The notes under the pieces are model-generated. The model worked only from the letters and a program-made list of their open reading frames with translations. It ran no database searches and was not told where the DNA came from. From positions 12,192 to 76,191 of the forward strand of contig JAXDOD010000102.1 of assembly GCA_034669045.1 (NCBI GenBank): a stretch of 64,000 bases of DNA. The letters run 5' to 3'. The translations under genes and the position numbers were made by a program. Origin of the DNA: Alphaproteobacteria bacterium (GTDB taxonomy: Bacteria > Pseudomonadota > Alphaproteobacteria > Rhizobiales > Xanthobacteraceae). How positions within the stretch are numbered: position 1 is the stretch's first letter; each line of letters starts with the position of its first letter. This document shows positions 23,989-63,086 of the stretch, piece after piece.

Positions 23989-25017
23989 TCAACTCTTGGG
24001 AATGCAAGAAGCGTAACGTTCGGTGGGGGCAAATACAACGATATCGGGATTGTGTGACAAGACGTCGCTCAGATCAAATGCACAGCGGGCATGATACATC
24101 CACACCAGCCTTCCTCCGTTGACCCAAATAGAGGGGAAGTAATTCTGTGTGAAAGAATCGCCGATGACAAGCACCGTGGGAGCGTCTAGACGCTCATAGG
24201 TGGATAGATCGAAAATCGGCTGATGGTCACGAACGTCGTTCGCCACCCCAAGAAATCGCGCGAGATCACCGCCGTTCCTTTCGCGGTAACCCTGGAACGA
24301 GCGATTGATGTCGATTCTCCACTCCGGGTGGCCCAGGGCCGCAACGATTTCGTCGCGCGTGACCGCTGCTCCGAACCCGTTCCAGTGCGTATCGGTGCGT
24401 AGATAGACCGGGTTCAGGGCGTTCGCCGCCAAGAGCGCGGGACGAACATCCAGTACCGGCACGCCGCGCTCAGAGAGTAGCTTCAGGGTAATGTCGTATT
24501 CAGTGATGTTTGACGGGTTGGACGCCCAGAGCGGCAATTTATCGAGGCTGATCGTTGATTTGTTTGGAACAATGGTCAGAAGAAATTTGATATTCCTTTC
24601 TGACAACTGCCTGTGGAGGTTTGCGACGAAATCCGAAAACGGACGCAAGATCTGCATGCGAGCCACAAGGCCCAGGGATTGTTCGAGCGCTTCGTCTCCG
24701 ACATAGAACAGCCAATGATCTCGCCCAATGACAACGAGCCGGTTGGTTGGGGAGGATAGAGCGTAGCGAACAAGGGCATTTGCGTGGATGATCTGGTCAC
24801 GAAAACCGAAATGATCGGAAAGGAATCCATCAATTGCCCGGGGAAGCGCAACCCAATTATCCCACGATTGTGGAAAACTCGGCAGGCGGCGAAGATTGCG
24901 CGCCTCCGCGCTTGAAGTCCGTTCAAGCGGTCTCGTTATTTGTCCAAAGAGCGGAAACAACAGGAGGCCGACGACAATGACGATCCATCCGCGGCGATGG
25001 CGAGCGAGAATGCCCAT
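23989..25017 (-). CDS. AlgJ/AlgX-type (SGNH-like) polysaccharide O-acetyltransferase component
   Basis: N-terminal signal anchor, the YLRTDTHWN (DxHW) motif and the VIGDSF motif characteristic of the AlgJ/AlgX family. It lies directly downstream of an MBOAT gene. Confidence 0.75.
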   Translation of the reverse strand: MGILARHRRGWIVIVVGLLLFPLFGQITRPLERTSSAEARNLRRLPSFPQSWDNWVALPRAIDGFLSDHFGFRDQIIHANALVRYALSSPTNRLVVIGRDHWLFYVGDEALEQSLGLVARMQILRPFSDFVANLHRQLSERNIKFLLTIVPNKSTISLDKLPLWASNPSNITEYDITLKLLSERGVPVLDVRPALLAANALNPVYLRTDTHWNGFGAAVTRDEIVAALGHPEWRIDINRSFQGYRERNGGDLARFLGVANDVRDHQPIFDLSTYERLDAPTVLVIGDSFTQNYFPSIWVNGGRLVWMYHARCAFDLSDVLSHNPDIVVFAPTERYASCIPKS

Positions 25018-25020
25018 CGC

Positions 25021-26463
25021 TCAAAACCTGAAATATAGAAATGGGCTGTACGATCCGGCCGCGATCGCGAAACCGGACAAGACGAAAAAAGTCGTGATGA
25101 TGAGCGAATCGGTCGCCGCCAGGACCGGCTGCTGAAGCCGCAGAGGAACATAACGTTTTAAATGCATTTTGGTCCCGTCCCAGGCTGTGACCGCGAGCAT
25201 TGCACCAATTACCATGGCACCCAACGTAACTGGATACAAAGTTAGATTTGTCGAGAAGCTGATCGGTCCCAGCCCATGGAGTCCAATCATGCCGCTGAAC
25301 ATATCCAGCGCGCCAGACATGTCCTTAGCGCGGAACCAGACCCATCCGGACATGACCACGAGCATGGCATAGAGCCAGGAAACAGTTGCGGGCACAACTC
25401 TCAGCAACCGCGAAACGCCGGCGCGTTCGATGACCAAAAAGAAGCCGTGGTGAATGCCCCAGACCACGAAATTCCAACTTGCTCCATGCCACAGTCCGCA
25501 TAGGAAGAACACCGTGCAGAGATTTGCATAGGTTCGAAATTCGGAGCCCCGGTTGCCCCCCAATGGAATATAGACATAGTCGCGAAACCAAGCCGACAAG
25601 CTGATGTGCCAACGGCGCCAGAATTCAGTTATCGAACGAGACGTGTAGGGAAGGCGAAAGTTACGCGGGAAGCGGATGCCGAGCCCCAGTGCGAGGCCGA
25701 CAGCCATGTTTGAGTAGCCCATAAAATCGAAATAGATCTGCAAGGTGTATGCCGCGAGCCCAAGCCAAGCCTCCATAAGGGTGACGGCCTGGGTGTGACT
25801 GAAGACAGACTCGGCAATGCGAGCCGTCTCATCGGCAATCAAAACCTTTTGTGCCAAGCCGATGATGAATATCCGCATGCCAGCGGAGGCTCGGCCCATT
25901 GTCGTTCTGCGTTCCCGCAGTTGCCGGTACACCGTGTTGTAACGGACGATCGGTCCTGCCACCAGTTGCGGGAACATCGACAGATAGACGGCTGCTTCCA
26001 GCGGGTCGCGATTGGCGACAACTTTTCGACGGCTGATGTCGATCAAGTAGGAAATGGAGTGAAAGGCAACAAAAGAAATGCCTAGCGGCAATGGGATTCC
26101 TAGAATGCCGATGCTTTTTGGGGGGCTCAGTACGGTGCTGTTAAGAGTTTGAATGAAGAAATCTGCATATTTGAAAATACCGAGCGCCACGAGATTAAGT
26201 ATCACGCCAACGGCCGTTGCCGCCGTTCTCTGCCAGCCTTCGAGGGGATCAATGACAAGTGCGATGCCGTAATTGGAAAAAATCATCAGCAGCATGAAAG
26301 CGACGAACCAGGGCTCACCCCATGCATAAAAAAGCAAGGACGCCAGCAACATGAACAGATTCTTCGTGTAAGTCGTCGGCAGCATGAAATAGACGGTCAG
26401 GAAAACAGGCAAGAAATAAAACAAGAAAATAATGGAAGAAAATACCACGCCGCTCCCCACCAC
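25021..26463 (-). CDS. MBOAT family membrane-bound O-acyltransferase (AlgI/PatA/DltB-like)
   Basis: FWRRWHISLSAWFRDYVYIPLGGNRG and LWHGASWNFVVWG (conserved His region); polytopic. Confidence 0.9.
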   Translation of the reverse strand: MVGSGVVFSSIIFLFYFLPVFLTVYFMLPTTYTKNLFMLLASLLFYAWGEPWFVAFMLLMIFSNYGIALVIDPLEGWQRTAATAVGVILNLVALGIFKYADFFIQTLNSTVLSPPKSIGILGIPLPLGISFVAFHSISYLIDISRRKVVANRDPLEAAVYLSMFPQLVAGPIVRYNTVYRQLRERRTTMGRASAGMRIFIIGLAQKVLIADETARIAESVFSHTQAVTLMEAWLGLAAYTLQIYFDFMGYSNMAVGLALGLGIRFPRNFRLPYTSRSITEFWRRWHISLSAWFRDYVYIPLGGNRGSEFRTYANLCTVFFLCGLWHGASWNFVVWGIHHGFFLVIERAGVSRLLRVVPATVSWLYAMLVVMSGWVWFRAKDMSGALDMFSGMIGLHGLGPISFSTNLTLYPVTLGAMVIGAMLAVTAWDGTKMHLKRYVPLRLQQPVLAATDSLIITTFFVLSGFAIAAGSYSPFLYFRF

Positions 26464-26613: not shown

Positions 26614-27483
26614 CTACAAACTTTTTACGATGCGATGGAGATAGCTCGCGTAGCTGCTCTTGCCGGGGGTCCTCAACAATGGGTCGATCTGATCAATCGT
26701 GACATAGCCTAGCCGTAGCGCAATCTCCTCAGGGCAGGAGATCTTCAGGCCTTGACGGCGCTCCAGGGTCGCCACGAATTCGGATGCTTCGAGAAGCGAG
26801 TCTATGGTGCCGGTATCGAGCCAGGCATAGCCGCGTCCCATCTGCTCGACGTGGAGGTCGCCGGCTTCGAGATAGCGGCGATTGACGTCGGTAATCTCCA
26901 GCTCACCCCGACCTGAAGGTTTCACTTCTGCAGCGTAGCGGACAACCGAATTGTCATAGAAGTAGAGCCCGGTGACTGCCCAGTTGGATTTCGGCTGGGC
27001 TGGTTTTTCCTCGATCGATATCGCTTTTCCAGAAGAATCGAATTCGACCACTCCGTAGCGTTTTGCATCGAGCACCTCATAAGCGAACAAGGTGGCCCCA
27101 GCCTGACGCTGTTTGGCTGAGTTCAGAAGCTCCGGCAGGCCGTGGCCATGAAAGATATTGTCGCCGAGGATGAGCGCACATCGGTCCGAGCCGATGAAGT
27201 CGCGTCCGATAATGAAGGCTTGGGCCAGACCTTCCGGCTGCGGTTGCGCTGCATAGCTGATCGACACGCCGAAATGCCGCCCGTCGCCTAATAGCGCTTG
27301 AAACAGAGCTTGGTCGTGTGGCGTCGTGATAACGAGGATGTCACGGATTTCAGCAAGCAACAGAACCGACAGAGGATAATAGATCATCGGCTTGTCGTAG
27401 ACCGGCAATAATTGCTTGGAAACGGCAACGGTGATCGGATATAGACGCGTGCCGCTCCCGCCCGCCAAAATAATCCCCTTCAT
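26614..27483 (-). CDS. rmlA: Glucose-1-phosphate thymidylyltransferase
   Basis: [18 protein letters not shown]...[17 protein letters not shown], with near-canonical RmlA sequence throughout. Confidence 0.95.
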
Positions 27484-28385
27484 GTAGGACTTCCCTGCAA
27501 TTCAAAGAGTTGTTCGAGACAGGTCTCAAGAGATTTCCGCCACATTGGCAGGCGTATCGCGAACACGCGGTCGAGCTTCGAACAATCGAGCCGTGAATTT
27601 TGGGGTCGGCGCGCCCGGGTAGGATATTCACTCGTTGAAATGGCATGCACGCGACAGGCTCGCCCGCGTTTTGCCGCCGACCACTCCATGATGGCGCTCG
27701 CGAAGCGGCACCACGTGGTCTCGCCCGATCCGGTCGCGTGATAGGTTCCGCACAGCGTCGAGCGGTCCGCCTTCTCGATCAACCTGTCGCCGACCGCCGC
27801 AATGGCAACAGCAAGATCGGCGGCAAACGTGGGAGCCCCCCATTGATCATCGACGACTTTGACCTCGTCGCGCTCGGCCGCCAGGCGCAACATCGTCTTG
27901 ACGAAGTTGTGGCCGTCCGGGCTGCACACCCAGCTCGTGCGCACGATCACATGATCGTTCGTTTCGGCGGCGACGGCCATTTCGCCGGCCAGCTTCGAAT
28001 GCCCGTAGACGCCAAGCGGCCCCGGCTCATCCGTTTCGACATAGGGCGAGGTCTTGGCGCCGTCGAAGACGTAGTCGGTCGAAATATGGATCAATGGGGC
28101 GGCCGCGGCGCGGGCCGCCGCAGCAACATGGCGCGCCCCGTCACGGTTGACCAGGAACGCCTGATCGGCATCGTCTTCCGCCTTGTCGACGGCCGTATAG
28201 GCCGCCGCGTTGATGACGAGGTCGGGATGGAATTGGGAAACCGCGGCCAGGACGGAATTTCGATCGGTGATGTCGACTTTTGAGCGGCCGGCGGCGGCGA
28301 CAACGGTTCCCCGCGCGCTATAGGTGCGGGCCAGCGCTTGGGCGACCTGCCCATTTTCTCCAATGATCAAGACTCGAGGCGTCAT
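27480..28385 (-). CDS. rmlD: dTDP-4-dehydrorhamnose reductase
   Basis: [18 protein letters not shown]..., [24 protein letters not shown] and YGHSKLAGE. The ATG at 28385 lies 4 nt after the rmlB stop. The longer track ORF (to 28571) runs antisense-free but inside rmlB. Confidence 0.9.
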
Positions 28386-28389
28386 TTTG

Positions 28390-29442
28390 TCAGACGTTGA
28401 TGAGGCCGAGGCGATCGCCGCTGTAGACGCTCTCGCGCAATGGTTGCCACCATGCCCGGTTCTCGAAATACCAGAGGACGGTCCTGCCCAGGCCAGTCTC
28501 GAAAGACTCCTGCGCGCTCCAGCCAAGTTCCCGTTCGATCTTGGAAGGATCGATCGCATAACGGCGATCATGACCAGGACGATCCGGCACGAACGTGATC
28601 AGCTCGCGGCGGCGGCCGGCACGCGGCACGAGTTCGTCCACCAGATCGCAGATCGTTTGCACGACCTCAAGATTGGTGCGTTCGCTGGAACCACCGACGT
28701 TGTATTTGTGCCCAATGCGGCCCTTGGTCAGGATGACCGCCAACGCCCGAACGTGGTCGTCGACATAGAGCCAGTCGCGGATATGTTGTCCATCGCCGTA
28801 GACCGGAAGCGCCTTTCCTTCGAGCGCGTTCAGAATGACCAGCGGAACAAGCTTTTCCGGAAAATGATAGGGCCCATAATTGTTGGAACAGTTGGAAATG
28901 ATTGTCGGCAGCCCGTAGGTCTCATACCAGGCGCTGACCAGATGATCGCTCGCAGCCTTGCTGGCGGAATAGGGAGATCTCGGACTATACGGCATCTCCT
29001 CATTGAACTGGCCCGTCGGTCCAAGCGACCCGTAGACCTCGTCGGTCGAAATATGAAGAAACTTGAATCGCTCGCGCGATGGGGGCGACAGGCGCGACCA
29101 ATATCCGCGAGCCGCCTCCAGCATCGTATGCGTGCCGAGCACGTTGGTCCGGACGAAGTCATCAGAGCCGCTGATCGAGCGATCGACATGGCTCTCGGCC
29201 GCAAGGTGCATGACCGCATCCGGGGCAAAGTCACGGAAGAGCGCGTCGAGAGCTGCTCGATCGCAGACGTCGGCGCGGGCGAAACGGTAATTCGCACTGT
29301 CCTTAAGGGAGTCGAGCGAGCGAAGATTCGCTGCGTAGGTCAGCTTGTCGACATTCAGGACCGTCCAGTACTCGGTCTGTACGAGATATCTGCAGACGGC
29401 TGATCCGATAAAGCCGGCTCCTCCCGTGACTAGGACGCGCAT
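28390..29442 (-). CDS. rmlB: dTDP-glucose 4,6-dehydratase
   Basis: [37 protein letters not shown] and [11 protein letters not shown]. Confidence 0.95.
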
Positions 29443-29462
29443 CTCTCAATCCAGGAATTGCT

Positions 29463-30023
29463 TCATTCGAAATAGACGCGAAGGTCTCGGAGTCTGGGCT
29501 GCGCTTTGTCTTTCTCCGATAATTGTGACGTCATCCCTGCCAGCGGCCACCTGATCCCGAGCTCCGGGTCGTTCCACAGAAGACCGAGATCGTTCTCGCG
29601 CGAGTAGTAATTGCTGACTTTGTACAAGACCTCCGTATCAGGTTCAAGGGTGCAGAACCCATGGGCGAAACCCAGAGGAATCAACAGTTGATGCCCGTTC
29701 TCCGCTGACAAATCCGCCGCGACGTGACGCCCGAACGAAGGCGAGGACCGGCGAATGTCGAGCGCGACGTCGAAGATCCGCCCGCGAACCACGCGCACAA
29801 GCTTGTCCTGGGCAAAGGGAGGCGACTGGAAATGCAGCCCCCTGACCGTGCCGACTTCGTTCGAAAGCGAATGATTTTCCTGGATGAAGGTCAAAAAGAT
29901 GCCGGCCGCTTCGAACTCGCTTTTCCGGTAGGTCTCGGAAAAAAATCCACGATTGTCGCGGACTCTCGACGGCTTGATGAGCTTGACAGACGGAATTTCC
30001 AGCGAATCAATTTGGATCGGCAT
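29463..30023 (-). CDS. rmlC: dTDP-4-dehydrorhamnose 3,5-epimerase
   Basis: [37 protein letters not shown] and GFAHGF. Confidence 0.95.
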
Positions 30024-30336: not shown

Positions 30337-33300
30337 GTGGCCGCGAAGCCAAAAATAGGCGCAGGGTTCAAGGCGAGACCGAAGGCGGCCCCCCGGGCCG
30401 GGTCGCGGACCTGCGTCATCGTCGCCGGCATGCATCGATCCGGCACATCCGCCGTCGCACGGGTCGTGAACCTCCTGGGCGCCGATATCGCGCGCGACCT
30501 GTGGCCTGCATCTCCCGGCGACAATGACCTGGGTTTCTGGGAGGCGACCAGGGTCATCGAGATTCACGAAGCGCTGCTGGCCGCGATCGGCAGCAGCTAC
30601 GACGATCCACTGCCGCTCTCCCGCAACTGGATCAAGACCACCGCGGCCCGCAAAGCCAAGCGCCAGATCGCCGATCACATCGAACAGGAATTCCGCACCA
30701 GCCGCGCGTTCGTCGTGAAGGATCCGCGCATCACCCGACTGCTGCCCTTGTGGCTCGAAGTCCTGGACGGTCTCAACATCGAGGCGAAAATCGTCATCCC
30801 CTTGCGCAACCCTCTCGAGGTCGCCGAATCGCTGCGCAGGCGAAATGCCTTCGCCCACGACAAGTCGCTGCTGATGTATGCCGACGCCAACCTGGCCACC
30901 GAGTTTGCAAGCCGCGGCCGTGATCGAATCTTCGTTTCATACAAAGCGCTCCTGACCGACTGGCGGCCGTTTGCCGGCAAGCTCATGACGATTGTCGGCC
31001 TGCGGCCGCGCCGGAACCATGAGACTGCGATCAAGGCATTCCTGACCAACGACCTGCATCGCAACCGGTATACGCACGACGACCTTGCCCGCCTGACGGG
31101 CGTGGGACGCATGGCGGTCGAGATTTTTGATCGTATGACCGAGGCTGCTCGCTCGGGCGAGAAACCCGCGCTGCAAGAGTCATTCGATGCCCTGCGTTCG
31201 ACGCTGATGGAAGGTTCGACGCTGTTCAAAGGCCTGATGCACGCGGACACCAAAAAGGCCCGGGACATGGAAACCGACCTTCGCGCCGAAATCGGAAGGC
31301 TGGTCGTCGACCGTGACGCGCAACGCACCCAGTTCGAAGCTGCGAGAGCCGAAGCCGCCGCCGCCCGAACAGGACACGAGACCCTCGCGAAGGACCGTGA
31401 CGCGTTCCTCGCCGAACGCGCGACCATCCTCAAGGAGCGCGAGGCCTTCATCAAGGAACGCGACTTCATCCTCAAGGAGCGCGATGCGTTCCTGGCCGAG
31501 CGCGACGCCTTGATCAAGCAACATCAGGCGGTCGAACGCGCCCACGAAGCCCTGACCAAGGAGCGCGGCGCTTTTCTCAAGGAGCGCAGCGTTCTCTTGA
31601 AGCAACAAGACGCGTTCCTCGCCGAACGCAGCACGATGTTGCAGGACCACAAAACATTTCTGACCGAGCGGGACGCCATCCTCAAGGAGCGGGATGCCGT
31701 GCTCAAAGAGTACGATACCTTCGCACGAGCTCACGCCGGCTTTGTCACCGAGCGCAAGACGCTGTTCAAGGAGCGGGATGCGCTTCTGGCAGAGCGCGAT
31801 GTCATTCTCGAAGAACACAAGGCCTTTCGCGCCGAGCGCACATCGATGCTCAAGGAGCACGACAAGTTCCTTGCCGAGCGCGACGCCATCCTCAAGGAAC
31901 GCGATGCCGTGATGGCCGAGCGCGACGTGTTCCTAAACGAGCGCAAGACGCTGTTCAAGGAACGGGACGCGCTTGTGGCCGAGCGCGACGTCGTCCTTGA
32001 TGAACACAAGGCGTTCCGCGCCGAGCGTGACTCGATGCTCAAGGAGCATGACAAGTTCCTGGCCGAGCGCGACGTCATTCTCGAAGAACACAGGGCGTTC
32101 CTCGCCGAGCGCAACTCCATGCTGAAGGAGCACGACAAATTCCTCGCCGAGCGCGAGGCCATCCTCAAAGAACGCAATGCCGTCATGGCCGAGCGCGACG
32201 TGTTCCAATCGGAGCGCAAGACGCTGTTCAAGGAGCGGGGTGCGCTTCTGGCCGAGCGCGATGTCATTCTCGAAGAACACAAGGCGTTCCTCGCCGAGCG
32301 CAGCTCGATGCTGAAGGAGCACGACAAGTTCCTCGCCGAGCGCGACGCCATCCTCAAGGAACGCAATGCCGTCATGGCCGAGCACGACGTGTTCCAATCG
32401 GAGCGCAAGACGCTGTTCAAGGAACGGGACGCGCTTGTGGCGGAGCGCGATGTCATTCTCGAAGAACACAAGGCGTTTCTCGCCGAGCGCAGCTCGATGC
32501 TCAAGGAGCACGACAAGTTCCTCGCCGAGCGCGACGCCATCCTCAAGGAACGGGATGCCTTCATCGCCGAGCGCGATGTTTTCATGAACGAACGCAAGAC
32601 GCTCTTCGAGGAGCGCGATGCCGTGCTCGGGCAGCACACGGCATTTCTGGTCGAGCGTGATGCAATCCTGAAAGAGCACGCCACCTTCTCCGCCGAGCGC
32701 GACGCCATCCTCAAGGAACGGGACGCCTTCCTGGCCGAGCGCCACGTCATTCTCAACGAGCGCAAGACCTTTCTCACCGAGCGCGACTCGATGTTCCAGG
32801 AGCATGACAGGTTCCGCGCCGAGCGCGACGGCATCCTCAAGGAGCGCGATGCCTTCTTGGCCGAGCGGGGGGTCTTCCAATCCGAGCGCAAGACGCTCTT
32901 CAAGGAAAGGGACGCGATTCTGGCGGAGCGCCATCACATTCTCGGCGAACACAAGACCTTCCTCGCCGAGCGCGATTGCATGCTGAAGGAGCACGACAAG
33001 TTTCTCTCCGAGCGGGACGCCATCCTCAGGGAACGCGATGCCTTGATCAAGCAATACGAGGCAGCCGGACAGGCGCGCGCCAGCCTCGTCGAGGAACGCA
33101 AGGTCCTCCTTGAGGAGCGCAAGACCCTGTTCAAAGAACGCGACGTCGCTCTCGCCGAGCGACAAGCGGTCCTCAAGCAATACAGCGATCAACGGGCAGA
33201 ATATGATGTCTTGCGAGAGACGCATCAGCTCATTGTCGCTGAGCGCGACACGCTTCAAAAGATGCAGCAGCTACTGATGGAGGCGCGGGCGGAACTTGAA

Positions 33301-33516
33301 AGCACGGCTGCAGCTTTGCGAGCGGAACAAGAAACCCTCGCGGCGGAAAGAAATCGGCTTCTGGACGAACGCGCGGTCTTGCATGCAGATGTTGAAGGGC
33401 TGCGCAAGGAGCGCAATGATCTCGAAGCCGAGCGCGATGCTCTGGTCCACGAGCGCGAAGAACGCCGCGGCTGGCCGATGACAGGCCTTCGCCGCAAGTT
33501 CGGGCGCGCTCAATGA
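30337..33516 (+). CDS. Sulfotransferase-domain protein fused to a 686-residue heptad-repeat helical rod (candidate glycan chain terminator / molecular ruler)
   Basis: N-terminal roughly 300 aa: VIVAGMHRSGTSAVARV (PAPS 5-prime phosphosulfate loop), VVKDPR and PLRNPLEVAESL (3-prime phosphate region). Residues 356-1041 form 98 consecutive heptads of consensus x-[FILVM]-[LFIM]-x-E-[RH]-[DKN]. The GTG start at 30337 is preceded by GGAAGGGAAG. Confidence 0.85.
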   Translation: MAAKPKIGAGFKARPKAAPRAGSRTCVIVAGMHRSGTSAVARVVNLLGADIARDLWPASPGDNDLGFWEATRVIEIHEALLAAIGSSYDDPLPLSRNWIKTTAARKAKRQIADHIEQEFRTSRAFVVKDPRITRLLPLWLEVLDGLNIEAKIVIPLRNPLEVAESLRRRNAFAHDKSLLMYADANLATEFASRGRDRIFVSYKALLTDWRPFAGKLMTIVGLRPRRNHETAIKAFLTNDLHRNRYTHDDLARLTGVGRMAVEIFDRMTEAARSGEKPALQESFDALRSTLMEGSTLFKGLMHADTKKARDMETDLRAEIGRLVVDRDAQRTQFEAARAEAAAARTGHETLAKDRDAFLAERATILKEREAFIKERDFILKERDAFLAERDALIKQHQAVERAHEALTKERGAFLKERSVLLKQQDAFLAERSTMLQDHKTFLTERDAILKERDAVLKEYDTFARAHAGFVTERKTLFKERDALLAERDVILEEHKAFRAERTSMLKEHDKFLAERDAILKERDAVMAERDVFLNERKTLFKERDALVAERDVVLDEHKAFRAERDSMLKEHDKFLAERDVILEEHRAFLAERNSMLKEHDKFLAEREAILKERNAVMAERDVFQSERKTLFKERGALLAERDVILEEHKAFLAERSSMLKEHDKFLAERDAILKERNAVMAEHDVFQSERKTLFKERDALVAERDVILEEHKAFLAERSSMLKEHDKFLAERDAILKERDAFIAERDVFMNERKTLFEERDAVLGQHTAFLVERDAILKEHATFSAERDAILKERDAFLAERHVILNERKTFLTERDSMFQEHDRFRAERDGILKERDAFLAERGVFQSERKTLFKERDAILAERHHILGEHKTFLAERDCMLKEHDKFLSERDAILRERDALIKQYEAAGQARASLVEERKVLLEERKTLFKERDVALAERQAVLKQYSDQRAEYDVLRETHQLIVAERDTLQKMQQLLMEARAELESTAAALRAEQETLAAERNRLLDERAVLHADVEGLRKERNDLEAERDALVHEREERRGWPMTGLRRKFGRAQ
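31402..33459 (+). repeat. Coding tandem array: 98 consecutive 21-nt (heptad) units with no register break
   Basis: I parsed the translation by hand. 355 N-terminal residues + 686 + an 18-residue tail = 1059 aa, which is consistent with the nt coordinates. Confidence 0.85.
31859..33181 (+). repeat. Higher-order 189-nt (9-heptad, 63-aa) repeats within the heptad array
   Basis: The anchor string (A/C)(C/T)GACAA(G/A)TT, encoding (E)HDKF, starts at 31859, 32048, 32132, 32321 and 32510. The related ATGACAGGTT starts at 32804, and ACGACAAG starts at 32993. Spacings are 189, 84, 189, 189, 294 and 189 nt. Copies 32132-32320 and 32321-32509 differ at roughly a dozen positions by manual alignment. Confidence 0.8.
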
Positions 33517-33631
33517 ACGGATGATTGTTGGCGGGAGCCGATTGCTTGCGCTGCAAAAAGCGGATTATAACCCATGTAAGTTCATCCTAGCTATTTCTTC
33601 CACGACGCCGGGACCACTCACACGATCAGCA

Positions 33632-34144
33632 ATGATGCCGCGCAAACACGATCCCAGCTTGAACTTGATGTCGGTGTCGGCACGAACGATCTCGGGGGAT
33701 GGACCATCGCCCAATCCCGGCAATCTGGCAAAGCCTGCCGGCAAACCGCCGACCGACACGCGATCTCACCTGTCGGCAGGCGGCCTGATGGTTGCGGCCG
33801 ATTTGCTCGCCACCTCGGCCGATCTGGGCCCGCAGGCGGACCCCGGTTCCGCACGGACAGCCGAGCACGAGGCGCTTCAGGCGCAAAAGGACAGGATCGA
33901 GCAGGACCTTCATGCAACACGACAGAAGCTTGCTGAGCTCACGCTCGAACACGAGACCCTGCTTCGAGTTTTCCGACAGCAGATAACGACGACGGCACGG
34001 ACGGTTCGCGAATTGACCAACGAGCGCAACGTCCTTCAGCACCATCTCGAAAACATTTTCAAATCGCCTTCGTGGCGGCTGACGGCACCTCTGCGGCTGG
34101 CCAAGGCCCAATTCAAACGCCTATGGGGATCTCAAGGCCGATGA
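33632..34144 (+). CDS. Hypothetical coiled-coil protein with conserved C-terminal SPSWRLTAPLR motif
   Basis: Low-complexity N-terminus, a coiled coil of roughly 70 aa (EHEALQAQKDRIEQDLHATRQKLAELTLEHETLL...), then FKSPSWRLTAPLRLAK. The start is uncertain (ATG at 33521 or 33632). Confidence 0.5.
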   Translation: MMPRKHDPSLNLMSVSARTISGDGPSPNPGNLAKPAGKPPTDTRSHLSAGGLMVAADLLATSADLGPQADPGSARTAEHEALQAQKDRIEQDLHATRQKLAELTLEHETLLRVFRQQITTTARTVRELTNERNVLQHHLENIFKSPSWRLTAPLRLAKAQFKRLWGSQGR

Positions 34145-34288: not shown

Positions 34289-37114
34289 ATGCTCGATAAT
34301 TCCACCAGAGATTCCTACCGGTCGCGCGACGAGCTATCCGTTGATTGCGCGCTGCTTGAGGAAAGCGAAATCTTCGACGCCGACGCCTACAGCGCCGCCA
34401 CCGGCATCGATCCGGCCAGTGCCGCCAAGCACTATCTGGCGGAGGGTTGGCTGCAAGGGCACGAGCCCTGCCCCGGCTTCGAGGGACGGTTTCTGTATCC
34501 ATATTATCGATCGGTTGGATTCAGCGGTTGCCCGGCAATGACGTACCTCACCCTGCGCGCCGCGGGGTGGCCGGTGTTTCCGAACCGGGCGGCAGTCGAG
34601 CATCTGGCTGAGTTCATCCGGTCGAACAATCTCTTCGATGCCGCCGCGTACCGTGCCCGTCTGGACGGCAGCGATCTGGACCCATTGTTTCATTACATCG
34701 TCGTTGGCGAACGAATGGGCCATGCTCCCAGCGCAGGCTTCGATGCCGCCTATTACGGCGAGCGTCACTTGGACGTCGCTCAGTCCGGGATGAGCTATCT
34801 CCAGCATTATGTGACGAGCGGCCGATCCGAAGGCCGGCCCTGTGTCAGTCTGGCGTCGCAACTCGAGTTTGATCGAACTCGCTTGCGACCTGACCGCAAG
34901 ACCGTCCTGCTCGTCAGCCACCAGGCATCGCGAACGGGCGCACCGATTCTCGCCTACAACATCGCGATGCACTTGGGTCAGAGATGCAATGTCGTCGCAT
35001 TGCTTCTCACGGGCGGCGATCTGGTCTATGCATTCGAGGCCTGTTGTGCTGCCGTCATCGGGCCCCTCCCCAGCCAGGACCTGCACCCTGTCGACGCCGA
35101 ATATCTCGTGCGGCGCATATTGGCGACCTATGATGTCTCGTTTGCGATCGTCAACAGCATCGAGTCCCGGTCCATATTGAGACCGTTGGCCTTTGCCCTG
35201 GTTCCCACCGTGACCTTGGTGCACGAGTTTCCCGCCCATCTCGGGGAAAAAGGCGAGATGGGCCGATCATTGGAGTGGGCGACCCAATCGGTCTTCTCCT
35301 CAAGCACGGTGCTATCATTACTCCGCGCGGAATATCCCAACATCGACAATTGGCCCGTGCACGTCCTCCCCCAAGGCCAATCGGCGCTGCCGTCGCCAGC
35401 ACACGCGCATGAACAGGACGGGGAGCAGCAATCCACGCGCAAGGCCATGCGTCCGGAAGGCTTCGAAGACGCCACTGTGGTGCTCGGATGTGGAACGATC
35501 TTCTTCCGCAAGGGCATCGATCTCTTCGTATCGTGCGCCGCGGCGACAGCGGCTATTCGCACGAAAAAGCCGGTGCGTTTCGTCTGGATTGGGAAGCGCC
35601 TGGACGAGGAAGACGACGGCGGTTATTTCGACCACATCTCGAATCTTATCGCCGCCGCGGGCGTTGCAGACCGAGTGGCCATCCTGGACGAAGTGGTTGA
35701 TTTGGAGCCGGCATATGCTTCAGCCGACGTGTTCTTTCTGAGCTCCCGGCGCGATGCCCTTCCAAACGTCGCCATCGATTCTGCCTTGCGGGGGCTACCG
35801 GTCATTTCTTTCGCAGATTCGGGCGGAGTGTCCGAGATCTTCGGCGCAGCCCCGGAAACCGCAATGAGTGTCGTGCCCGGCCCCGATGTCGAGGCGGCAG
35901 CGCGATTGATCGCCAAGCTGGCTGACGACGAAGCCTTGCGTCGCGATCTGGGCGACGCCACGCGGCGGATCGCAGCGGCGACCTTCGACATGGGCCGTTA
36001 TGTGCGGCAGATCGAACATCTGGGCGACGAAGCCAGAGAGATCATGCGTCAGCGCGGTGAGGATTTTGAAACAATTCGCCGCGACTCCATGTTCGACATG
36101 ATCGGGTTTCTCGGCCGCGAAGGTATGGAGACCACGCGGGACGAGGCAATCCGCCTGTTCCTCGGAAGAGCTGCCGCGCTTGGTACGTCGAGGATTCCAA
36201 CGGCGAATTTCTATTACCGCCGGCCATGCGCCGGATTTCATCCGCAGATTTACGCAGAAAAGAACGCGGACCGCTATGACACCGCCAAGATCAATCCGCT
36301 TGCGCATTTCATTCGGAGCGGCAAGCCGGAAGGGCCGTGGTATCATCAAGTCCTGCGGCCACCTAAATTCGACGAGATCACGGCGAGCGCGCCGAACCTG
36401 CGCATCGGGTTACACGCCCACTTTCACTACCCCGAACTTGCTGCCGGCTTGCTCGCGAAGCTGCTCGCGAATCGAGCGCGCTGCGACCTATTGTTGACGA
36501 CGAGCACGCCGGTGAAGGCCGAAACATTGCGCGCCGCCACAGCCGGTTATGAGGCGGGAAGCGTGACCATCCGCGTGGTCCCGAACCGCGGACGCGACAT
36601 CGGGCCTTTCCTGACCGCATTCGATGACGCCATCGAGGATTATGAGATCGTCGGCCATGTTCACAGCAAACGCAGCCTGTTTGCGGGCGGACTTCTGGGA
36701 GAGTCTTGGCGCGACTTTCTCTGGCAGAACCTCATCGGCGATCTATTCCCGATGTTGGATATCATCATCGGGCATTTCGAGGCGGACAAGACATTGGGGC
36801 TGGTATTTCCCGAAGACTTTCATCTTCCCGACTGGGACAAGAATCGTGCCATGGCTGAAAGGCTGGCACGACGAATGGGCATTCAAGCTTCGCTGCCGGC
36901 TTTTTTTGATTTTCCGGTCGGCACCATGTTCTGGGCGCGCGCCAAGGCTCTGCAACCGCTGTTCGATCTCAAGCTTGGCTGGAATGACTATCCGGAGGAA
37001 CCATTGCCGATCGATGGTACGCTCTTGCATGCCCTCGAGAGGCTTGTGCCGTTTGCGGCTCAGCACGCCGGCTATCGTTTCGCGACCACCCATCTCCCTG
37101 GCGTGACCTGGTGA
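34289..37114 (+). CDS. Multidomain glycosyltransferase: N-terminal repeat motifs + GT4-like domain + C-terminal rhamnan synthesis protein F (RgpF)-like domain
   Basis: GT4-like: VLLVSHQASRTGAPILAYNIA ... FLSSRRDALPNVAIDSALRGLPVI. RgpF-like: IGLHAHFHYPEL, VVPNRGRDIGPFL, VGHVHSKRS, WRDFLWQNLIG and FPVGTMFWARAKAL. The N-terminus has repeated FDAxAY...HY...G...EG motifs. Confidence 0.85.
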   Translation: MLDNSTRDSYRSRDELSVDCALLEESEIFDADAYSAATGIDPASAAKHYLAEGWLQGHEPCPGFEGRFLYPYYRSVGFSGCPAMTYLTLRAAGWPVFPNRAAVEHLAEFIRSNNLFDAAAYRARLDGSDLDPLFHYIVVGERMGHAPSAGFDAAYYGERHLDVAQSGMSYLQHYVTSGRSEGRPCVSLASQLEFDRTRLRPDRKTVLLVSHQASRTGAPILAYNIAMHLGQRCNVVALLLTGGDLVYAFEACCAAVIGPLPSQDLHPVDAEYLVRRILATYDVSFAIVNSIESRSILRPLAFALVPTVTLVHEFPAHLGEKGEMGRSLEWATQSVFSSSTVLSLLRAEYPNIDNWPVHVLPQGQSALPSPAHAHEQDGEQQSTRKAMRPEGFEDATVVLGCGTIFFRKGIDLFVSCAAATAAIRTKKPVRFVWIGKRLDEEDDGGYFDHISNLIAAAGVADRVAILDEVVDLEPAYASADVFFLSSRRDALPNVAIDSALRGLPVISFADSGGVSEIFGAAPETAMSVVPGPDVEAAARLIAKLADDEALRRDLGDATRRIAAATFDMGRYVRQIEHLGDEAREIMRQRGEDFETIRRDSMFDMIGFLGREGMETTRDEAIRLFLGRAAALGTSRIPTANFYYRRPCAGFHPQIYAEKNADRYDTAKINPLAHFIRSGKPEGPWYHQVLRPPKFDEITASAPNLRIGLHAHFHYPELAAGLLAKLLANRARCDLLLTTSTPVKAETLRAATAGYEAGSVTIRVVPNRGRDIGPFLTAFDDAIEDYEIVGHVHSKRSLFAGGLLGESWRDFLWQNLIGDLFPMLDIIIGHFEADKTLGLVFPEDFHLPDWDKNRAMAERLARRMGIQASLPAFFDFPVGTMFWARAKALQPLFDLKLGWNDYPEEPLPIDGTLLHALERLVPFAAQHAGYRFATTHLPGVTW

Positions 37115-37298
37115 CGCAGTCCATCCTGGCGGGCACGCGTTTCGTCCATATGGTGTCGGGCTACTGGCGATTCGGCCGGCGCCCGGATATGTATTTTCGT
37201 CTTCCGTCCGCTCTTGCACATGATTCCCGGTTGATCGCGACCGGACGTCACGTGCCAGGGCATTGACCGCACCCAGTGAGAAGACGTTGAACGGTACG

Positions 37299-38264
37299 AT
37301 GGGTAATCTCAGGAAATCATTTTCCGAAGCGCGATGTCTCGTAATCGGCGGGGGCGGGTTCATCGGTATCAATCTCAGCAACGCGCTCGCGCGGGCGGGC
37401 GCCCAGGTTGATGCGTATGGCCGCCGTCTGTCGATTCGCGACAGCCTGATCTCCGGCGTGCGCTGGACCAGCGCCGATTTCGCCGATCGAGCCAAGCTGG
37501 CGGAAGCCGTCGAGCACGCCGACTTTGTCTTTCACCTCGTGAGCTCGAGCACGCCGTCGAGCGCGAATGCCGATCCGGCGGCCGACGTGATGGACAATCT
37601 CGTTACGACGCTCCATCTGCTCGACATTTGCCGGGTCCAGTCGTTCGGCCGCCTGGTGTTCATCTCCTCGGGCGGCACGGTCTACGGCATTCCCTCGATG
37701 ATTCCCGTGCCGGAGACCGCGCCGACCGATCCTATCTCTGCGCACGGCGTCCAGAAGCTCGCCGTCGAAAAGTATCTCGCGCTCTATCGGCACCTGTATG
37801 ATCTGGACTATCTCGTGCTCCGCGTCGCAAACCCGTATGGACCGATGCAAATCGCACGCAAGAGCCAGGGTGTGGTTGCGGCATTGATGATGCGCGCGCT
37901 GGCCGACGAGCCGGTCGAGATTTGGGGTTCCGGCGACGTGGTACGGGATTTCATCCATGTGCAGGATGTGGTGCGCGCGATCCTCATGGCCTCGCTCCAT
38001 CCGGGACCATCGCGTCTGTTCAATCTGGGCTCCGGCATGGGCACCAGCATCAAGACCGTGATCGACGACATCGAACGGGTGGTGGGCCGGGGTCCGCTGA
38101 AGCGGATTCACTTGCCCGCGCGCGCGGTCGACGTGCCCTCGAACGTTCTCGATATTCGCCGTATCCGCGAGGAGGTCGGCTGGCAGCCCGAGATCGAATG
38201 GATGGATGGGCTGCGCAAGACCATGGAATGGACGATGAACGCAAAGGAAAATGGGCTGATCTGA
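37299..38264 (+). CDS. NAD-dependent epimerase/dehydratase (SDR)
   Basis: CLVIGGGGFIGINL, ISSGGTVYG and LRVANPYGP. The expected YxxxK position reads HGVQK. I prefer the ATG at 37299 over the TTG at 37263. Confidence 0.75.
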   Translation: MGNLRKSFSEARCLVIGGGGFIGINLSNALARAGAQVDAYGRRLSIRDSLISGVRWTSADFADRAKLAEAVEHADFVFHLVSSSTPSSANADPAADVMDNLVTTLHLLDICRVQSFGRLVFISSGGTVYGIPSMIPVPETAPTDPISAHGVQKLAVEKYLALYRHLYDLDYLVLRVANPYGPMQIARKSQGVVAALMMRALADEPVEIWGSGDVVRDFIHVQDVVRAILMASLHPGPSRLFNLGSGMGTSIKTVIDDIERVVGRGPLKRIHLPARAVDVPSNVLDIRRIREEVGWQPEIEWMDGLRKTMEWTMNAKENGLI

Positions 38265-38386
38265 TTCTCGACCGTCCGGACTACGCCGAGTTATTTGATG
38301 AGCGCGGCCATCCGCGGCAGCAACGAATCAGCGAATACGCGGCTCCGTCTTGTTCTTGTGCGCCCGCAAAAAAGCCTGGAAGACGA

Positions 38387-39331
38387 ATGCGGTTTTCAGT
38401 CGTCATACCTGTTTACAACCGGCAGCAGCCCGGCCAGCGCGCAGCGCGCAGCGCGCTGGCCCAGAACATCGAGGGCTTGGAGATCATCCTTGTCGACGAT
38501 GGCTCAAAGCCGCCGTTTCATCTGACACCCGATCTCGCCGCCAACCCGAACGTCATCCTGCTGCGACACGACGAAAACCGCGGCGCGGGTGCCGCCCGCA
38601 ATACCGGCGTCGCCGCGGCGCGCGGCGAATGGATCGCGTTTCTCGACTCCGACGACTATTGGCTCGCCGATACGTTGCGGCCGCGGCTGCAGGTCGCCGA
38701 GACACAGTGGAAGAATGACCCGGACCGGATGACGGTCCATGTGGCGGGCTTCGTCATCGACAACCGCCGGACCGGCCGGCGTGACGCCCGGATTCCGCGC
38801 CACAGCGAGCAGCTCATCCATTTCGCGAGCGGCTGCTGGTACTGTCCCGGCTCGACAGCCGTGTTTCGCAAGAGCATTTTCGACCGCATCGGCCCGTTCG
38901 ACCCCTTGCTGCGGCGGCTCGAGGACTTCGACTGGTTCCTGCGCTTTGGCTTGGCAGGGGGACGACTGGACGTGTGGGATGGCCTCGCCGCGGTCGTCGA
39001 AACCGGCCAGAAGCCTCGACTTGCGATCCTGGAGGACAGCGCGCGCCGCTTGCGCCAGAAATTCGTCGAGCAAGCCGGTCCGCAACGCGTGGCGCCCGAG
39101 CTCATTCGCATGCTCGACGCCTATCTCGACATCGAACGCGCATCGGTCTTTATCGCGCAGAAGCGTCCGCTCAACATGGTGCTTTGCATTGCGAGGTCGC
39201 TGTGGCGGGTTCCGCGTCTCACGCTGCAAGTCGAGCGTTTCTGGCGCCGCACAGCGGTGCCGCAGCGGCTCGAGCCGCCGGCGCCCTTCTACTCCGCACC
39301 CGCGGCCGAAACGCCTCAAAAAGCATGCTGA
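38387..39331 (+). CDS. Family 2 glycosyltransferase
   Basis: MRFSVVIPVYNRQQ..., EIILVDDGSKPP, ENRGAGAARNTG and FLDSDDYW (DxD). The ATG at 38387 is in frame with the longer track ORF, whose N-terminal part overlaps the upstream SDR gene. Confidence 0.85.
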   Translation: MRFSVVIPVYNRQQPGQRAARSALAQNIEGLEIILVDDGSKPPFHLTPDLAANPNVILLRHDENRGAGAARNTGVAAARGEWIAFLDSDDYWLADTLRPRLQVAETQWKNDPDRMTVHVAGFVIDNRRTGRRDARIPRHSEQLIHFASGCWYCPGSTAVFRKSIFDRIGPFDPLLRRLEDFDWFLRFGLAGGRLDVWDGLAAVVETGQKPRLAILEDSARRLRQKFVEQAGPQRVAPELIRMLDAYLDIERASVFIAQKRPLNMVLCIARSLWRVPRLTLQVERFWRRTAVPQRLEPPAPFYSAPAAETPQKAC

Positions 39332-40239
39332 AAGTCGCCGTTATCACGCCGACCATCGACCGCGCGGAGTTTCTGCCGGACGCGATTGCCAGCGTCCCGC
39401 ACGACGACAGCGTTGAGATCGAGCATGTCATGATCCACGACGGGTCGGACGCCTTCGTATCGTCGGTGCAGGAACGCTTCCCGCACGTCCGCGTGCTGCG
39501 CGGCGAAGATCGCGGCGCGGGCGCTGCCGTGACACGCGGACTGCAATCGGCGGCAGCGGATTTCTACATCGAGCTCAACAGTGACGACCGCTTGGTGCCG
39601 GGATGCTTCGCACGATTGGCCGAACGCGTCCGCGCGCGCCCCGACGTCCTGATCTGGACCGGGGGGACCCGTGTCTTCATGACCGGCAACGATGGCCGCG
39701 AGGTGGAGCTTCGGCGCCTGCAGTCCGCCAGCGACACGGCGCTCACGCTCCCCAATGTGCTCGACGATCTCCCACTCGTGCATGCGCGGTTTTTCCATCG
39801 CAGCGTATTCGACCGCATCGGCTATTTCAGTCCGCAGTTCGAGCAATGTTCAGACCGCGAGTTCATGATCCGCGCGGTCATGGCCGGCATCCCTGAAGCC
39901 CCGCTCGACCACATGGTTTCGGAGTTCCGCGTCCACGAGGGATCGCAGACCACCCGCTCCACCCGCGGTCGCGTTCCGGCCTATATGGCCGAGCACTGCC
40001 GCGTCGCCGACTCGTGGCTGGCGCGGCGTGACCTGCCGCCGGGACGGCGAAGGAGCTTCGCCAATTGGCGGGCGCGCGAACTCCTGCGCCTGCTCTGCTA
40101 CCAGCTCATGGCCGGGTCGCTTCCACAGGCCGCCAAGACCTTCGGCGTCGAGACCTTCAAGCACCCGACCTGGCCGTTGCGGGCACTCACCATCGTGGCA
40201 GCGATGAGGCGGCGGGCTCGCACGAGCGAACCGTCTTAA
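39325..40239 (+). CDS. Family 2 glycosyltransferase
   Basis: MLKVAVITPTIDRAEFL..., HVMIHDGSD, DRGAGAAVTRG and ELNSDDRL (DxD-like). The start overlaps the upstream stop. Confidence 0.8.
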   Translation: MLKVAVITPTIDRAEFLPDAIASVPHDDSVEIEHVMIHDGSDAFVSSVQERFPHVRVLRGEDRGAGAAVTRGLQSAAADFYIELNSDDRLVPGCFARLAERVRARPDVLIWTGGTRVFMTGNDGREVELRRLQSASDTALTLPNVLDDLPLVHARFFHRSVFDRIGYFSPQFEQCSDREFMIRAVMAGIPEAPLDHMVSEFRVHEGSQTTRSTRGRVPAYMAEHCRVADSWLARRDLPPGRRRSFANWRARELLRLLCYQLMAGSLPQAAKTFGVETFKHPTWPLRALTIVAAMRRRARTSEPS

Positions 40240-40495: not shown

Positions 40496-41359
40496 TTGGG
40501 AAAGGAAGAGCGGAGGGTGGACGCCGTTCTCAAACCGAATACGCAGGTCATATCGCCCGTCGCGATATCCCACGCATGGCGGGCCCGCCGGGACATCATT
40601 GACGGTCTCAAACTCTGGCCGGTATGGACCGCGCTGGCCTGGCACGACATCCGCATCCGTTACATCCGCACGATGCTCGGCCCGCTCTGGATCACGGTGT
40701 CCATGGGCGTCACCGTTCTGGCGCTGGGACTGGTCTTCAGCGGCGTTTTCAAGACGCGGCTTAGCGAATACCTGCCGTTCCTCACGGCCGGCCTGTTGAT
40801 CTGGGGTTTCATCAGCAGCGTCCTGACTGAATCGGCGACCACGTTTTCCAACGCCGTGACGGTCATCCTGTCGATCTCAGCGCCCTATTCGATGCACATC
40901 TACCGTGCGGTGCTGCGGCAGCTCATCATCTTCGGCCACAACGTGCTCGTGTTCGCAGCCGTCGTGCTGTTCGTCGGCGTACCGGTGACGTCGGCAACGC
41001 TGCTGTTCATTCCCGGAATGCTGCTGATCACCATTGTCATGACCTGGATCAATCTTCTGGTCGCAATGGTCGGCTGCCGCTTCCGCGATCTCCAGCCGAT
41101 CATCGCTTCGGTCCTCCAGCTCGTGTTCTTCTTGACCCCGTTGATCTGGGACCGGGGCGTTCTGCCGGCTGGCGCGAGCCATGCGTGGATCGACGCCAAC
41201 CCGTTCTATCATCTGATCGAGATTGCGCGCGCACCTCTCCTGGGCAAGGTGCCAGGACAGCTAACGATTATCTATGTCATCGCTCTTGCGGTGGTCGGCT
41301 GGGGCCTGACCTACCTCGTGTTCATCCGATTCCGCCGGCGTATTCCTTACTGGCTGTAA
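40496..41359 (+). CDS. wzm: ABC-2 type polysaccharide export permease (Wzm/KpsM/TagG family)
   Basis: Six TM helices with an ABC-2 signature-like N-terminus (LWPVWTALAWHDIRIRYIRTMLGPLWI). The start is TTG at 40496 or, more likely, GTG at 40517, which is preceded by GGAAGAGCGGAGG. Confidence 0.85.
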   Translation: MGKEERRVDAVLKPNTQVISPVAISHAWRARRDIIDGLKLWPVWTALAWHDIRIRYIRTMLGPLWITVSMGVTVLALGLVFSGVFKTRLSEYLPFLTAGLLIWGFISSVLTESATTFSNAVTVILSISAPYSMHIYRAVLRQLIIFGHNVLVFAAVVLFVGVPVTSATLLFIPGMLLITIVMTWINLLVAMVGCRFRDLQPIIASVLQLVFFLTPLIWDRGVLPAGASHAWIDANPFYHLIEIARAPLLGKVPGQLTIIYVIALAVVGWGLTYLVFIRFRRRIPYWL

Positions 41360-41364
41360 CAGAC

Positions 41365-42171
41365 ATGTCATACATCCACCTGGACAGGGTTTCCGTCGAA
41401 ATTCCGATCTACAGCGGCCTGGACCGGTCGCTGAAGCTGAGCCTGTTCCGGTCGGCGGCGGATACGGGCCTGCTCCGGTCGGCCGGCGGCACCATTGGCC
41501 GCGACCGGCGCGATCGCATCGTCATCCGCGCACTCGATGAGATCACGCTGCAGATTTCCGACGGCGACCGGATCGCGCTGATCGGCCGCAACGGCGCGGG
41601 CAAGACCACGCTGCTGCGGGTGCTTGCCGATGTCATGGAGCCGGTGAGCGGCACGATCAAGATTTCCGGGCGCGTCTCGACTCTTTTCAACGTATCCGGT
41701 CTGATGGACCCCGAGCTGCCGGGCTACGACAACGTATTCTTCGCGGGCGGGCTCATCGGCATATCGCGCAGCCGGCTGAAGAAGCTGATGCCGGACATCG
41801 AGGCATTTGCGGAGCTCGGCGACTATCTTCGGATGCCGGTGCGAACCTATTCCGCGGGCATGATGATCCGGCTTGGCTTCGCGATCGCCACCTGCATCGA
41901 TCCGGATATCCTGCTGATGGACGAGGTCATCGGCGCCGGCGACACGCATTTCGTCGACAAGGCCATCCGGCGCGCGCAGGAACTTTACAAGCAATCCAAC
42001 ATTCTGATCGCTGCATCGCATTCCCCCACATTGCTCCAGGGGCTGTGCAACAAGGCGATCCTGCTGGAGGGTGGCAAAGTCGTCAGCATGGGGTCGTTCG
42101 AGTCCGTCACGAAATTCTATGAGGACAATCCCTGGTCGGCAGGGACCGCGCCCCAGCAAGCCGCCGAGTAG
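41365..42171 (+). CDS. wzt: ABC polysaccharide export ATP-binding protein (Wzt/KpsT/TagH family), NBD only
   Basis: Walker A GRNGAGKTTLL, signature YSAGMMIRLGF, Walker B ILLMDEV and H-loop AASHS. Its 268 aa leave no room for a C-terminal carbohydrate-binding domain. Confidence 0.9.
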   Translation: MSYIHLDRVSVEIPIYSGLDRSLKLSLFRSAADTGLLRSAGGTIGRDRRDRIVIRALDEITLQISDGDRIALIGRNGAGKTTLLRVLADVMEPVSGTIKISGRVSTLFNVSGLMDPELPGYDNVFFAGGLIGISRSRLKKLMPDIEAFAELGDYLRMPVRTYSAGMMIRLGFAIATCIDPDILLMDEVIGAGDTHFVDKAIRRAQELYKQSNILIAASHSPTLLQGLCNKAILLEGGKVVSMGSFESVTKFYEDNPWSAGTAPQQAAE

Positions 42172-53550: not shown

Positions 53551-53678
53551 AGGTATTATTCCACCACGGCCCTGATTGCGTCTCACGCGGAAAGCGGGTT
53601 TGTCCCGGTTCCGGACCTGTTCACCCGCAGATCCGCAAACTACAACGCGCGGCGCATCAACTCAACTCGCGGCCGGCC

Positions 53679-63083: not shown

Positions 63084-63086
63084 GCG

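Follow-up and report, generated by a model that had tools for sequence, protein, structure and literature searches.

Capping of the growing chain by an enzyme that carries a coiled-coil ruler is the best-understood means by which bacteria set the length of their surface glycans. To our knowledge, the only caps demonstrated experimentally are methyl, methyl-phosphate and 3-deoxy-D-manno-oct-2-ulosonic acid (Kdo) groups. What marks such polymerase–terminator systems is a terminating enzyme carried on the far end of a coiled coil (PMC11231755). In WbdD of Escherichia coli O9a and Klebsiella pneumoniae O3, an N-terminal end-modifying enzyme is followed by a coiled coil and a short C-terminal region proximal to the membrane and the polymerase, and the protein stands alone, encoded together with a separate polymerase and wzm/wzt; in WbbB of K. 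pneumoniae O12 and ORF6 of K. pneumoniae O7, the terminator, the coil and the polymerase glycosyltransferases (GTs) form one polypeptide (PMC11231755). Here we analyse a 64-kb stretch of alphaproteobacterial DNA (64,000 nucleotides of contig JAXDOD010000102.1, hereafter the window), one gene of which encodes a protein that shares both the domain order and the stand-alone arrangement of WbdD, with a sulfotransferase-like head placed on an extreme heptad rod.

The gene lies at 30337–33516 (plus strand, as are all coordinates below unless marked minus) and encodes 1059 amino acids, from a GTG start preceded by the purine-rich, ribosome-binding-like GGAAGGGAAG to a stop codon at 33514–33516; the open reading frame (ORF) had been called in a first-pass annotation of the DNA, and the ORF list and translation bear it out. 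The frame stays open across 3.18 kb, with a G+C content of 61% in both gene and window and a G+C fraction at third codon positions (GC3) of 0.78. Our reading, which we hold with about as much confidence as doubt, is that the product is a stand-alone, WbdD-like chain-modifying and chain-terminating enzyme of an ABC-transporter-dependent, rhamnose-containing polysaccharide pathway: the protein most likely sulfates a growing sugar chain, whose length it may also measure and whose end it may cap. When metagenome DNA was scanned twice for other alleles of the gene, one scan returned 0 matches and the other 2 chance matches in unrelated genes, and megablast of 24 kb against plasmids found generic sugar-nucleotide genes as the sole matches.

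Modelling shows that the N-terminal ~300 residues are predicted to have the fold of sulfotransferases that use 3'-phosphoadenosine 5'-phosphosulfate (PAPS), with the cofactor motifs intact. The catalytic head proper, a PAPS-sulfotransferase-like alpha/beta fold by AlphaFold2 and Foldseek, spans residues ~24–300 (30406–31236), and its model, built on a 67-sequence family alignment, has a predicted local distance difference test (pLDDT) score of 92 and a predicted template-modelling (TM) score of 0.85. When this model was compared with the Protein Data Bank (PDB) by Foldseek, ranks 1–33 were all PAPS sulfotransferases, among them the sulfotransferase (ST) domain of CurM, TPST1/2 and the cytosolic SULTs, with E values of 1e-5 to 1.6e-3, probabilities of 0.99–1.00 and modest TM-scores of 0.35–0.54; guanylate kinase and PFKFB3 came in at ranks 34–41.

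The motifs that bind the cofactor lie where this fold would place them. The 5'-phosphosulfate-binding loop AGMHRSGTS (residues 30–38; 30424–30450) is flanked in the model by strand 25–29 and helix 34–46, and in the family alignment its H33, R34 and G36 are invariant and its G31, T37 and S38 at least 90% conserved. The 3'-phosphate-binding motif RNPLEVAES (residues 157–165; 30805–30831), with invariant R157, P159 and S165, spans the junction between strand 149–156 and helix 159–170, and through the trimmed family profile its nine residues pair one to one with RNPKDVAVS in SULT1A3, a human enzyme (PDB 1cjm). Between the two, KDPR (residues 128–131; 30718–30729) is invariant in our alignments A1 and A2, and its PR is aligned to the PR of PRLIKSHLP in the same human enzyme. 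All three had been picked out in the first-pass annotation (the loop as GMHRSGTS, residues 31–38), and all three fall in invariant or nearly invariant columns of the 67-sequence alignment. The catalytic histidine of the cytosolic SULTs is not conserved in the head family; the invariant E69 is a candidate for the catalytic base, although we offer this as inference only.

Sequence scores for the head are weak. The head of the window protein scores 19.0 bits against PF13469, under the gathering score of 27 and so a point against the sulfotransferase assignment, and 16.3 bits against PF00685, where the cut-off is 22. PF13469 is matched by 17 of the 67 homologs (best E 1.1e-6), and one fused relative, L060, reaches its gathering score with 27.2 bits; the trimmed head profile, searched against PDB sequences, ranks SULT1A3 first at E 0.076. 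The full-length protein gives spurious coiled-coil and GAGA_bind matches and nothing else in Pfam, and no match in a scan of NCBIfam. Searches of PDB sequences with phmmer and with the first head-alignment profile found de novo helical bundles only, drawn in by the helical C-terminal part, and were set aside. The family-level and structural evidence is much stronger than these sequence scores, and it places the head in the sulfotransferase fold; the homology anticipated in the first-pass annotation holds for fold and motifs and fails for the profile score of the single sequence.

Beyond the head, a stalk helix starts at residues 277–355 (31165–31401), ahead of the regular heptads, and appears in the head model as a helix over residues 277–349 with pLDDT 86–98. 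It leads into the rod, residues 356–1041 (31402–33459), in which 98 consecutive heptads follow one another in a single phase. The same count, with no stutter, had been reached in the first-pass annotation, and both an exact parse and the Fourier phase agree with it. The heptad consensus is A-[FLI]-L-[AK]-E-[RH]-[DK], and the pair E[RH] recurs in one phase in 81 of the 98 heptads (mean 4.5 and maximum 10 in 1000 shuffles). Large hydrophobic residues have a dominant period of 7.01, with a phase of -22 to -58 degrees from residue ~341 to 1040; since this drift amounts to only ~35 degrees over ~700 residues, the rod contains no stutter or stammer. It also contains no proline, 9 glycines and ~35% hydrophobic residues. 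One detail of the earlier description needs correction: the large hydrophobics stand at the adjacent positions 2 and 3 and are not spaced by 3 and 4. The best-conserved residues of the heptad, E5 and R/H6, have no charged partner at i+3 or i+4 within the helix. For this reason, and given the ~35% hydrophobic residues, a single-alpha-helix rod of the ER/K type was judged unlikely; an oligomer in which hydrophobic layers alternate with ionic ones would be compatible with the pattern.

In size, the rod stands apart from its relatives: by a crude measure it runs uninterrupted for 756 residues, roughly threefold the maximum seen in 254 of them. Its physical length of ~100 nm is an extrapolation from 686–767 helical residues at 0.15 nm each, on the assumption of one straight and continuous helix. 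At the DNA level, the rod consists of nested tandem repeats of 21, 42, 84, 126, 189 and 273 bp, all of the periods being multiples of 21 bp. Tandem Repeats Finder resolves the youngest duplication as 2.9 copies of a 189-bp unit (63 residues, or 9 heptads) with 91% match at 32059–32615; it also places a 273-bp repeat (13 heptads) at 31786–32370. As the repeats comprise whole heptads and the youngest still match at 91%, the rod has probably grown recently by in-frame duplication of heptad blocks.

The protein ends in a basic tail, RRGWPMTGLRRKFGRAQ (33466–33513), which is recognizable in the translation as a degenerate copy of the family's SxSWRxTAPLR and basic end motif and which we take to be the membrane- or polymerase-proximal end. 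Of the 120 best homologs, 85 carry the SxSWRxTAPLR motif, and the C-terminus of one relative, P0002, reads GSGSWKLTALLRKK. Directly downstream, a small ORF (orf207; 33521–34144) carries in its last ~95 residues a short coiled coil, a canonical SPSWRLTAPLR (34064–34096) and a basic tail, and these residues are ~30% identical, end to end, to the tails of family members. Its GC3 is 0.64, compared with 0.78 for the main gene, and it is not present at the syntenic locus L001. This ORF is a copy of the family's C-terminal end that has no head; it could serve as an adaptor that joins the stalk in a complex, or it could be what is left of an earlier 3' end of the gene.

The head belongs to a large family. 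A homolog search gave 915 matches, almost all of them unnamed, and an exhaustive search counted 3040 cluster representatives with E≤1e-30, a number that rises to 12,147 with E≤1e-10, spread over Alpha- and Gammaproteobacteria, Planctomycetota, Actinomycetota, Cyanobacteria and other groups; members are also encoded in Mesorhizobium genomes, and further cultured relatives are Acidiphilium, Paracoccus sp. S-4012 and Thiothrix eikelboomii. The typical architecture is a head, a coiled coil of highly variable length, and the SxSWRxTAPLR motif with a basic tail. The shortest rods have about 30 residues and the longest more than 750, and the proteins come with or without fused partners: many relatives extend past the tail motif into polymerase-type GT modules, in the combinations WsaF-like with GT2, WbsX with GT4 and GT2, WbsX with RgpF, GT4 with RgpF, GT2 with GT4, or a single GT4. 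At the loci L016, L060, L080, L035 and L038, the head and coil are fused to WsaF-like, WbsX, GT4, GT2 or RgpF modules.

The most informative of the fusions is the one at L003, from a Methyloceanibacter metagenome-assembled genome. There, a single ORF of 1619 residues begins with a head 50% identical to that of the window protein, continues with ~350 residues of coiled coil and ends in a part that is 46% identical over 851 residues to the GT4-RgpF protein encoded next to our gene; the C-terminal part is the ortholog of that protein. Such a Rosetta-stone fusion is a functional link between the sulfotransferase-stalk protein and the GT4-RgpF polymerase encoded beside it. The fusion ORFs of 1200–1630 residues (L003 9746–14605, L016 9986–14230, L060 9965–14749, L080 9608–14500 and L035 9938–13588, in the coordinates of their own loci) hold 2–3 GT modules each, often with SWRxTAPLR and WYL..NPL.HY repeats, and look like a modular family of candidate terminator–polymerase enzymes. 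Since they join head, coil and polymerase-type GTs in the manner of WbbB, they lend independent comparative support to the analogy with terminators and rulers. Two further architectures were seen: P0123 (681 residues) has a head, a ~200-residue globular insert with methyltransferase-like sequence features, a coiled coil and the motif, and P0128 (1473 residues) has WbsX, head and coil followed by GT2 modules. With these, the family may also include mixed cap chemistries.

The genes around the relatives point in the same direction. Within 10 kb of the 49 related loci with full flanks, an ABC ATPase was found at 28 and a GT4/RgpF-like gene likewise at 28. Of 80 relatives, 5 have a gene for adenosine 5'-phosphosulfate (APS) kinase, cysN or both at a distance of no more than 10 kb, and we roughly estimate that considerably less than one such locus would be expected by chance: these are L079 (9397–10062 and 10073–13135), L076 (7324–8019), L074 (1206–3113), L064 (19268–20548) and L073 (at its start), some of them with cysN(C), and 11 bp separate the end of the APS kinase gene at L079 from the head–coil–RgpF fusion gene downstream of it. 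This lends independent, if indirect, support to the use of PAPS and, by analogy with nodPQ, which accompany nodH, suggests a dedicated PAPS supply at the loci concerned.

The arrangement with divergent rml genes recurs at L001 and L081, and among the orthologs so arranged the protein differs in length, with 575 residues in P0002/L081, 748 in L001 and 1059 in the window. P0002, which comes from another sample, has an ER[DE]-type heptad, as does the window rod. L001 (6110–8356) is the closest genomic relative, with 56% head identity and the same rml/RgpF synteny, and its rod of ~400 residues is built from a quite different 21-residue repeat, ELRRLVAEVENREERLTAADG. As the rods of L001 and the window are of different repeat types, they seem to have expanded independently in each lineage.

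In the window itself, the genes rmlA, rmlD, rmlB and rmlC for the synthesis of dTDP-L-rhamnose (26614–30023, minus) lie directly upstream of the sulfotransferase gene and diverge from it. Downstream follow a two-module GT4 and RgpF glycosyltransferase, the presumed rhamnan polymerase partner (34289–37114), an NAD-dependent epimerase/dehydratase (37263–38264), a GT2 glycosyltransferase (37922–39331; PF00535, E 1.8e-28) that probably starts downstream of the listed TTG, and a second GT2 glycosyltransferase (38974–40239). The transporter genes come next: a Wzm-type ABC-2 permease (40496–41359; PF01061) and a Wzt-type ABC ATPase (41365–42171; PF00005) of ~268 residues counted from Met61 of the listed ORF. 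Directly after wzt stands a methyltransferase gene (42261–43235), with a class I domain at residues 146–271 and an N-terminal part of 145 residues free of annotation, and a WecA/WbpL-type polyprenyl-phosphate sugar-phosphate transferase (63084–64000; PF00953, E 8.7e-28) runs off the window end. The gene context given in the first-pass annotation, with divergent rml genes, GT4-RgpF, two GT2s, wzm and wzt on one strand and a WecA-type gene at the end, was recovered in full by Pfam, and none of the window ORFs scanned matched wzx, wzy or wzz, as that annotation had also stated.

By its gene content, the whole 64-kb window is a polysaccharide island. It also holds two split-transketolase pairs (12292–14054, and 55228–57013, minus), a B12-binding radical S-adenosylmethionine enzyme (51505–53586, minus), an O-acetylation pair of an MBOAT and an AlgX-like protein (23989–26463, minus) and two adjacent DegT-type aminotransferases (20134–22349), which together suggest several unusual sugars and perhaps more than one glycan within the 64 kb. 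An ORF of 699 residues (8791–10890) has no Pfam match at E≤1e-5, and one of 919 residues (46012–48771, minus) has a weak Glyco_trans_1_2 match only.

If the product is indeed a capping enzyme, it could work as follows. The basic C-terminal tail would sit at the membrane beside the GT4-RgpF polymerase, and the stalk, probably an oligomeric coiled coil, would reach into the cytoplasm and keep the sulfotransferase well away from where polymerization takes place. Chains linked to undecaprenyl would reach the head only once they were long enough; the head would then move sulfate from PAPS onto the non-reducing end, elongation would stop, and Wzm/Wzt would export the capped product. The length of the rod would set the modal chain length, which could evolve through in-frame duplication of whole-heptad blocks. 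We can go further and picture the protein as an extreme member of a large, unrecognized family of sulfotransferase terminators, one that caps with sulfate, works with a Wzt that has no carbohydrate-binding module (CBM) and makes an exceptionally long sulfated rhamnan with a ~100-nm ruler, lengthened in blocks of 9 and 13 heptads and built from an unusual heptad whose hydrophobic and ionic layers alternate, that would be by far the longest known; this composite picture is speculative, and we would be somewhat surprised to see all of it hold.

Several observations weigh against a capping and measuring role. The evidence fits terminal and internal sulfation alike. The window Wzt stops shortly after its nucleotide-binding domain and has no C-terminal CBM, so the cap-recognition step of the prototypes must be missing or done differently; either export is independent of cap reading, or the enzyme merely decorates the polymer. 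Wzt-like proteins near most relatives similarly have no C-terminal extension, L066 and L067 being possible exceptions. The methyltransferase encoded after wzt could be an alternative source of end groups and may O-methylate the same glycan, and no PAPS-synthesis gene was found within the window. Going by its residues, the rod is a strict heptad repeat that is non-canonical with respect to an a/d coiled coil, and the full-length AlphaFold2 model, made from the single sequence, is of low confidence (pLDDT 53) and has the helix broken at several points. Finally, a cytoplasmic ruler of 100 nm would imply chains of at least roughly 200 sugars, an unusual length for an O antigen. The role of terminator and ruler put forward in the first-pass annotation is thus upheld in part: the sulfotransferase fold and motifs, the heptad rod, the ABC-dependent cluster of rhamnan type and the head–coil–GT fusions speak for it, and a Wzt that lacks the cap-reading module does not.

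The absence of that module, here and in most related loci, is what gives most weight to a decorating sulfotransferase, which would add sulfate internally or on side branches while the stalk tethers the enzyme, oligomerizes it or scaffolds it with the GT complex, and in which chain length would come from the coupling of polymerization and export, as it does in systems in which Wzt has no binding module; moreover, the bacterial polysaccharide sulfotransferases in a recent review are not reported as terminators (PMC11625862). A mere tether, however, would not obviously need the sharp variation in rod length seen among syntenic orthologs, and the layout of head, coil and proximal end, together with the head–coil–GT fusions, mirrors WbdD and WbbB (PMC11231755). 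We therefore regard decoration as a serious possibility, though one that we do not favour. A different doubt concerns the chemistry. With sequence scores below threshold, the SULT histidine not conserved, and guanylate kinase and PFKFB3 lower down in the fold search, the head might be another P-loop-like transferase, such as an ATP-using kinase that caps with phosphate in place of sulfate. This we consider improbable: the 33 structural matches ranked above those kinases are all sulfotransferases, the 3'-phosphate motif RNPxExxxS, which is invariant, marks PAPS binders specifically, and APS kinase genes adjoin several relatives. Least credible to us is that the extreme rod is an artefact of tandem-repeat mis-assembly or belongs to a degenerating gene, expanding without any function tied to length. 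The window does come from a 281-kb metagenome contig of the Joint Genome Institute, the exact 1059-residue protein has no record in the gene-call collection searched, and the 189- and 273-bp repeats are of a kind that invites such concern. That the repeat copies have diverged (86–91% match) instead of being identical speaks against errors of collapse or expansion; furthermore, the frame is open over its whole length (3.18 kb, 61% G+C, GC3 0.78), the heptad phase and the E-R/H pair are kept throughout, and the same type of heptad occurs in P0002 from another sample.

If the sulfate cap is real, it adds a new capping chemistry and links the barely characterized sulfation of bacterial glycans to a defined mechanism, and if termination is coupled to a Wzt that has no CBM, the logic differs from that of the WbdD and WbbB prototypes. 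With its natural series of rod lengths and its fused and unfused architectures, the family makes the ruler hypothesis directly testable, and it raises the questions of what upper limit the ruler principle has and of how export is controlled where Wzt carries no module to bind the cap. Sulfated rhamnans of defined length are of possible interest for glycoengineering.

WbdD, which the window protein resembles most in layout, has a methyltransferase–kinase head in place of the sulfotransferase head and no sequence homology to our protein, and its partner Wzt has the cap-binding module that the window Wzt lacks. Its coiled coil is roughly five-fold shorter than the window rod, and canonical. WbbB and ORF6, which likewise have no homology to the window protein, are matched in architecture by the fusions at L003, L016, L060, L080 and L035, where the sulfotransferase head takes the place of the terminator, and the polymer of K. 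pneumoniae O7 contains rhamnose (PMC11231755), as does the product expected of the window's pathway; they differ in that WbbB terminates by beta-Kdo transfer (GT99) and ORF6 by methyl-phosphate, and in that the polymerase of the window is encoded by a separate gene.

In chemistry, the nearest parallels are LpsS of Sinorhizobium meliloti, KpsS of Mesorhizobium loti and NodH, which sulfate surface glycans or glycolipids in a PAPS-dependent manner, as is proposed here, and NodH belongs to PF13469, the family weakly matched by the window head (PMC11625862). None of the three is reported to have a coiled-coil ruler or a terminator role, unlike the protein proposed here, and a 2024 review on sulfotransferases that act on polysaccharides is silent on both coiled coils and O antigens (PMC11625862). 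A search of full-text literature gave no description that joins a sulfotransferase with WbdD, a molecular ruler or Wzt-type terminators, although the 2019 census of terminators by Mann, Kimber and Whitfield, which lay outside that search, may list candidates. In structure, the CurM ST domain (4gbm), TPST1/2 and the SULTs have the fold and the two PAPS-binding motifs in common with the head, and they differ from it in sequence (10–15% identity), in having no stalk and, for the SULTs, in the catalytic histidine. The domain layout is therefore already known from WbdD, WbbB and O7 ORF6, and what is new in the window is the chemistry of the head, the extreme and unusually built rod, and a transporter without a CBM.

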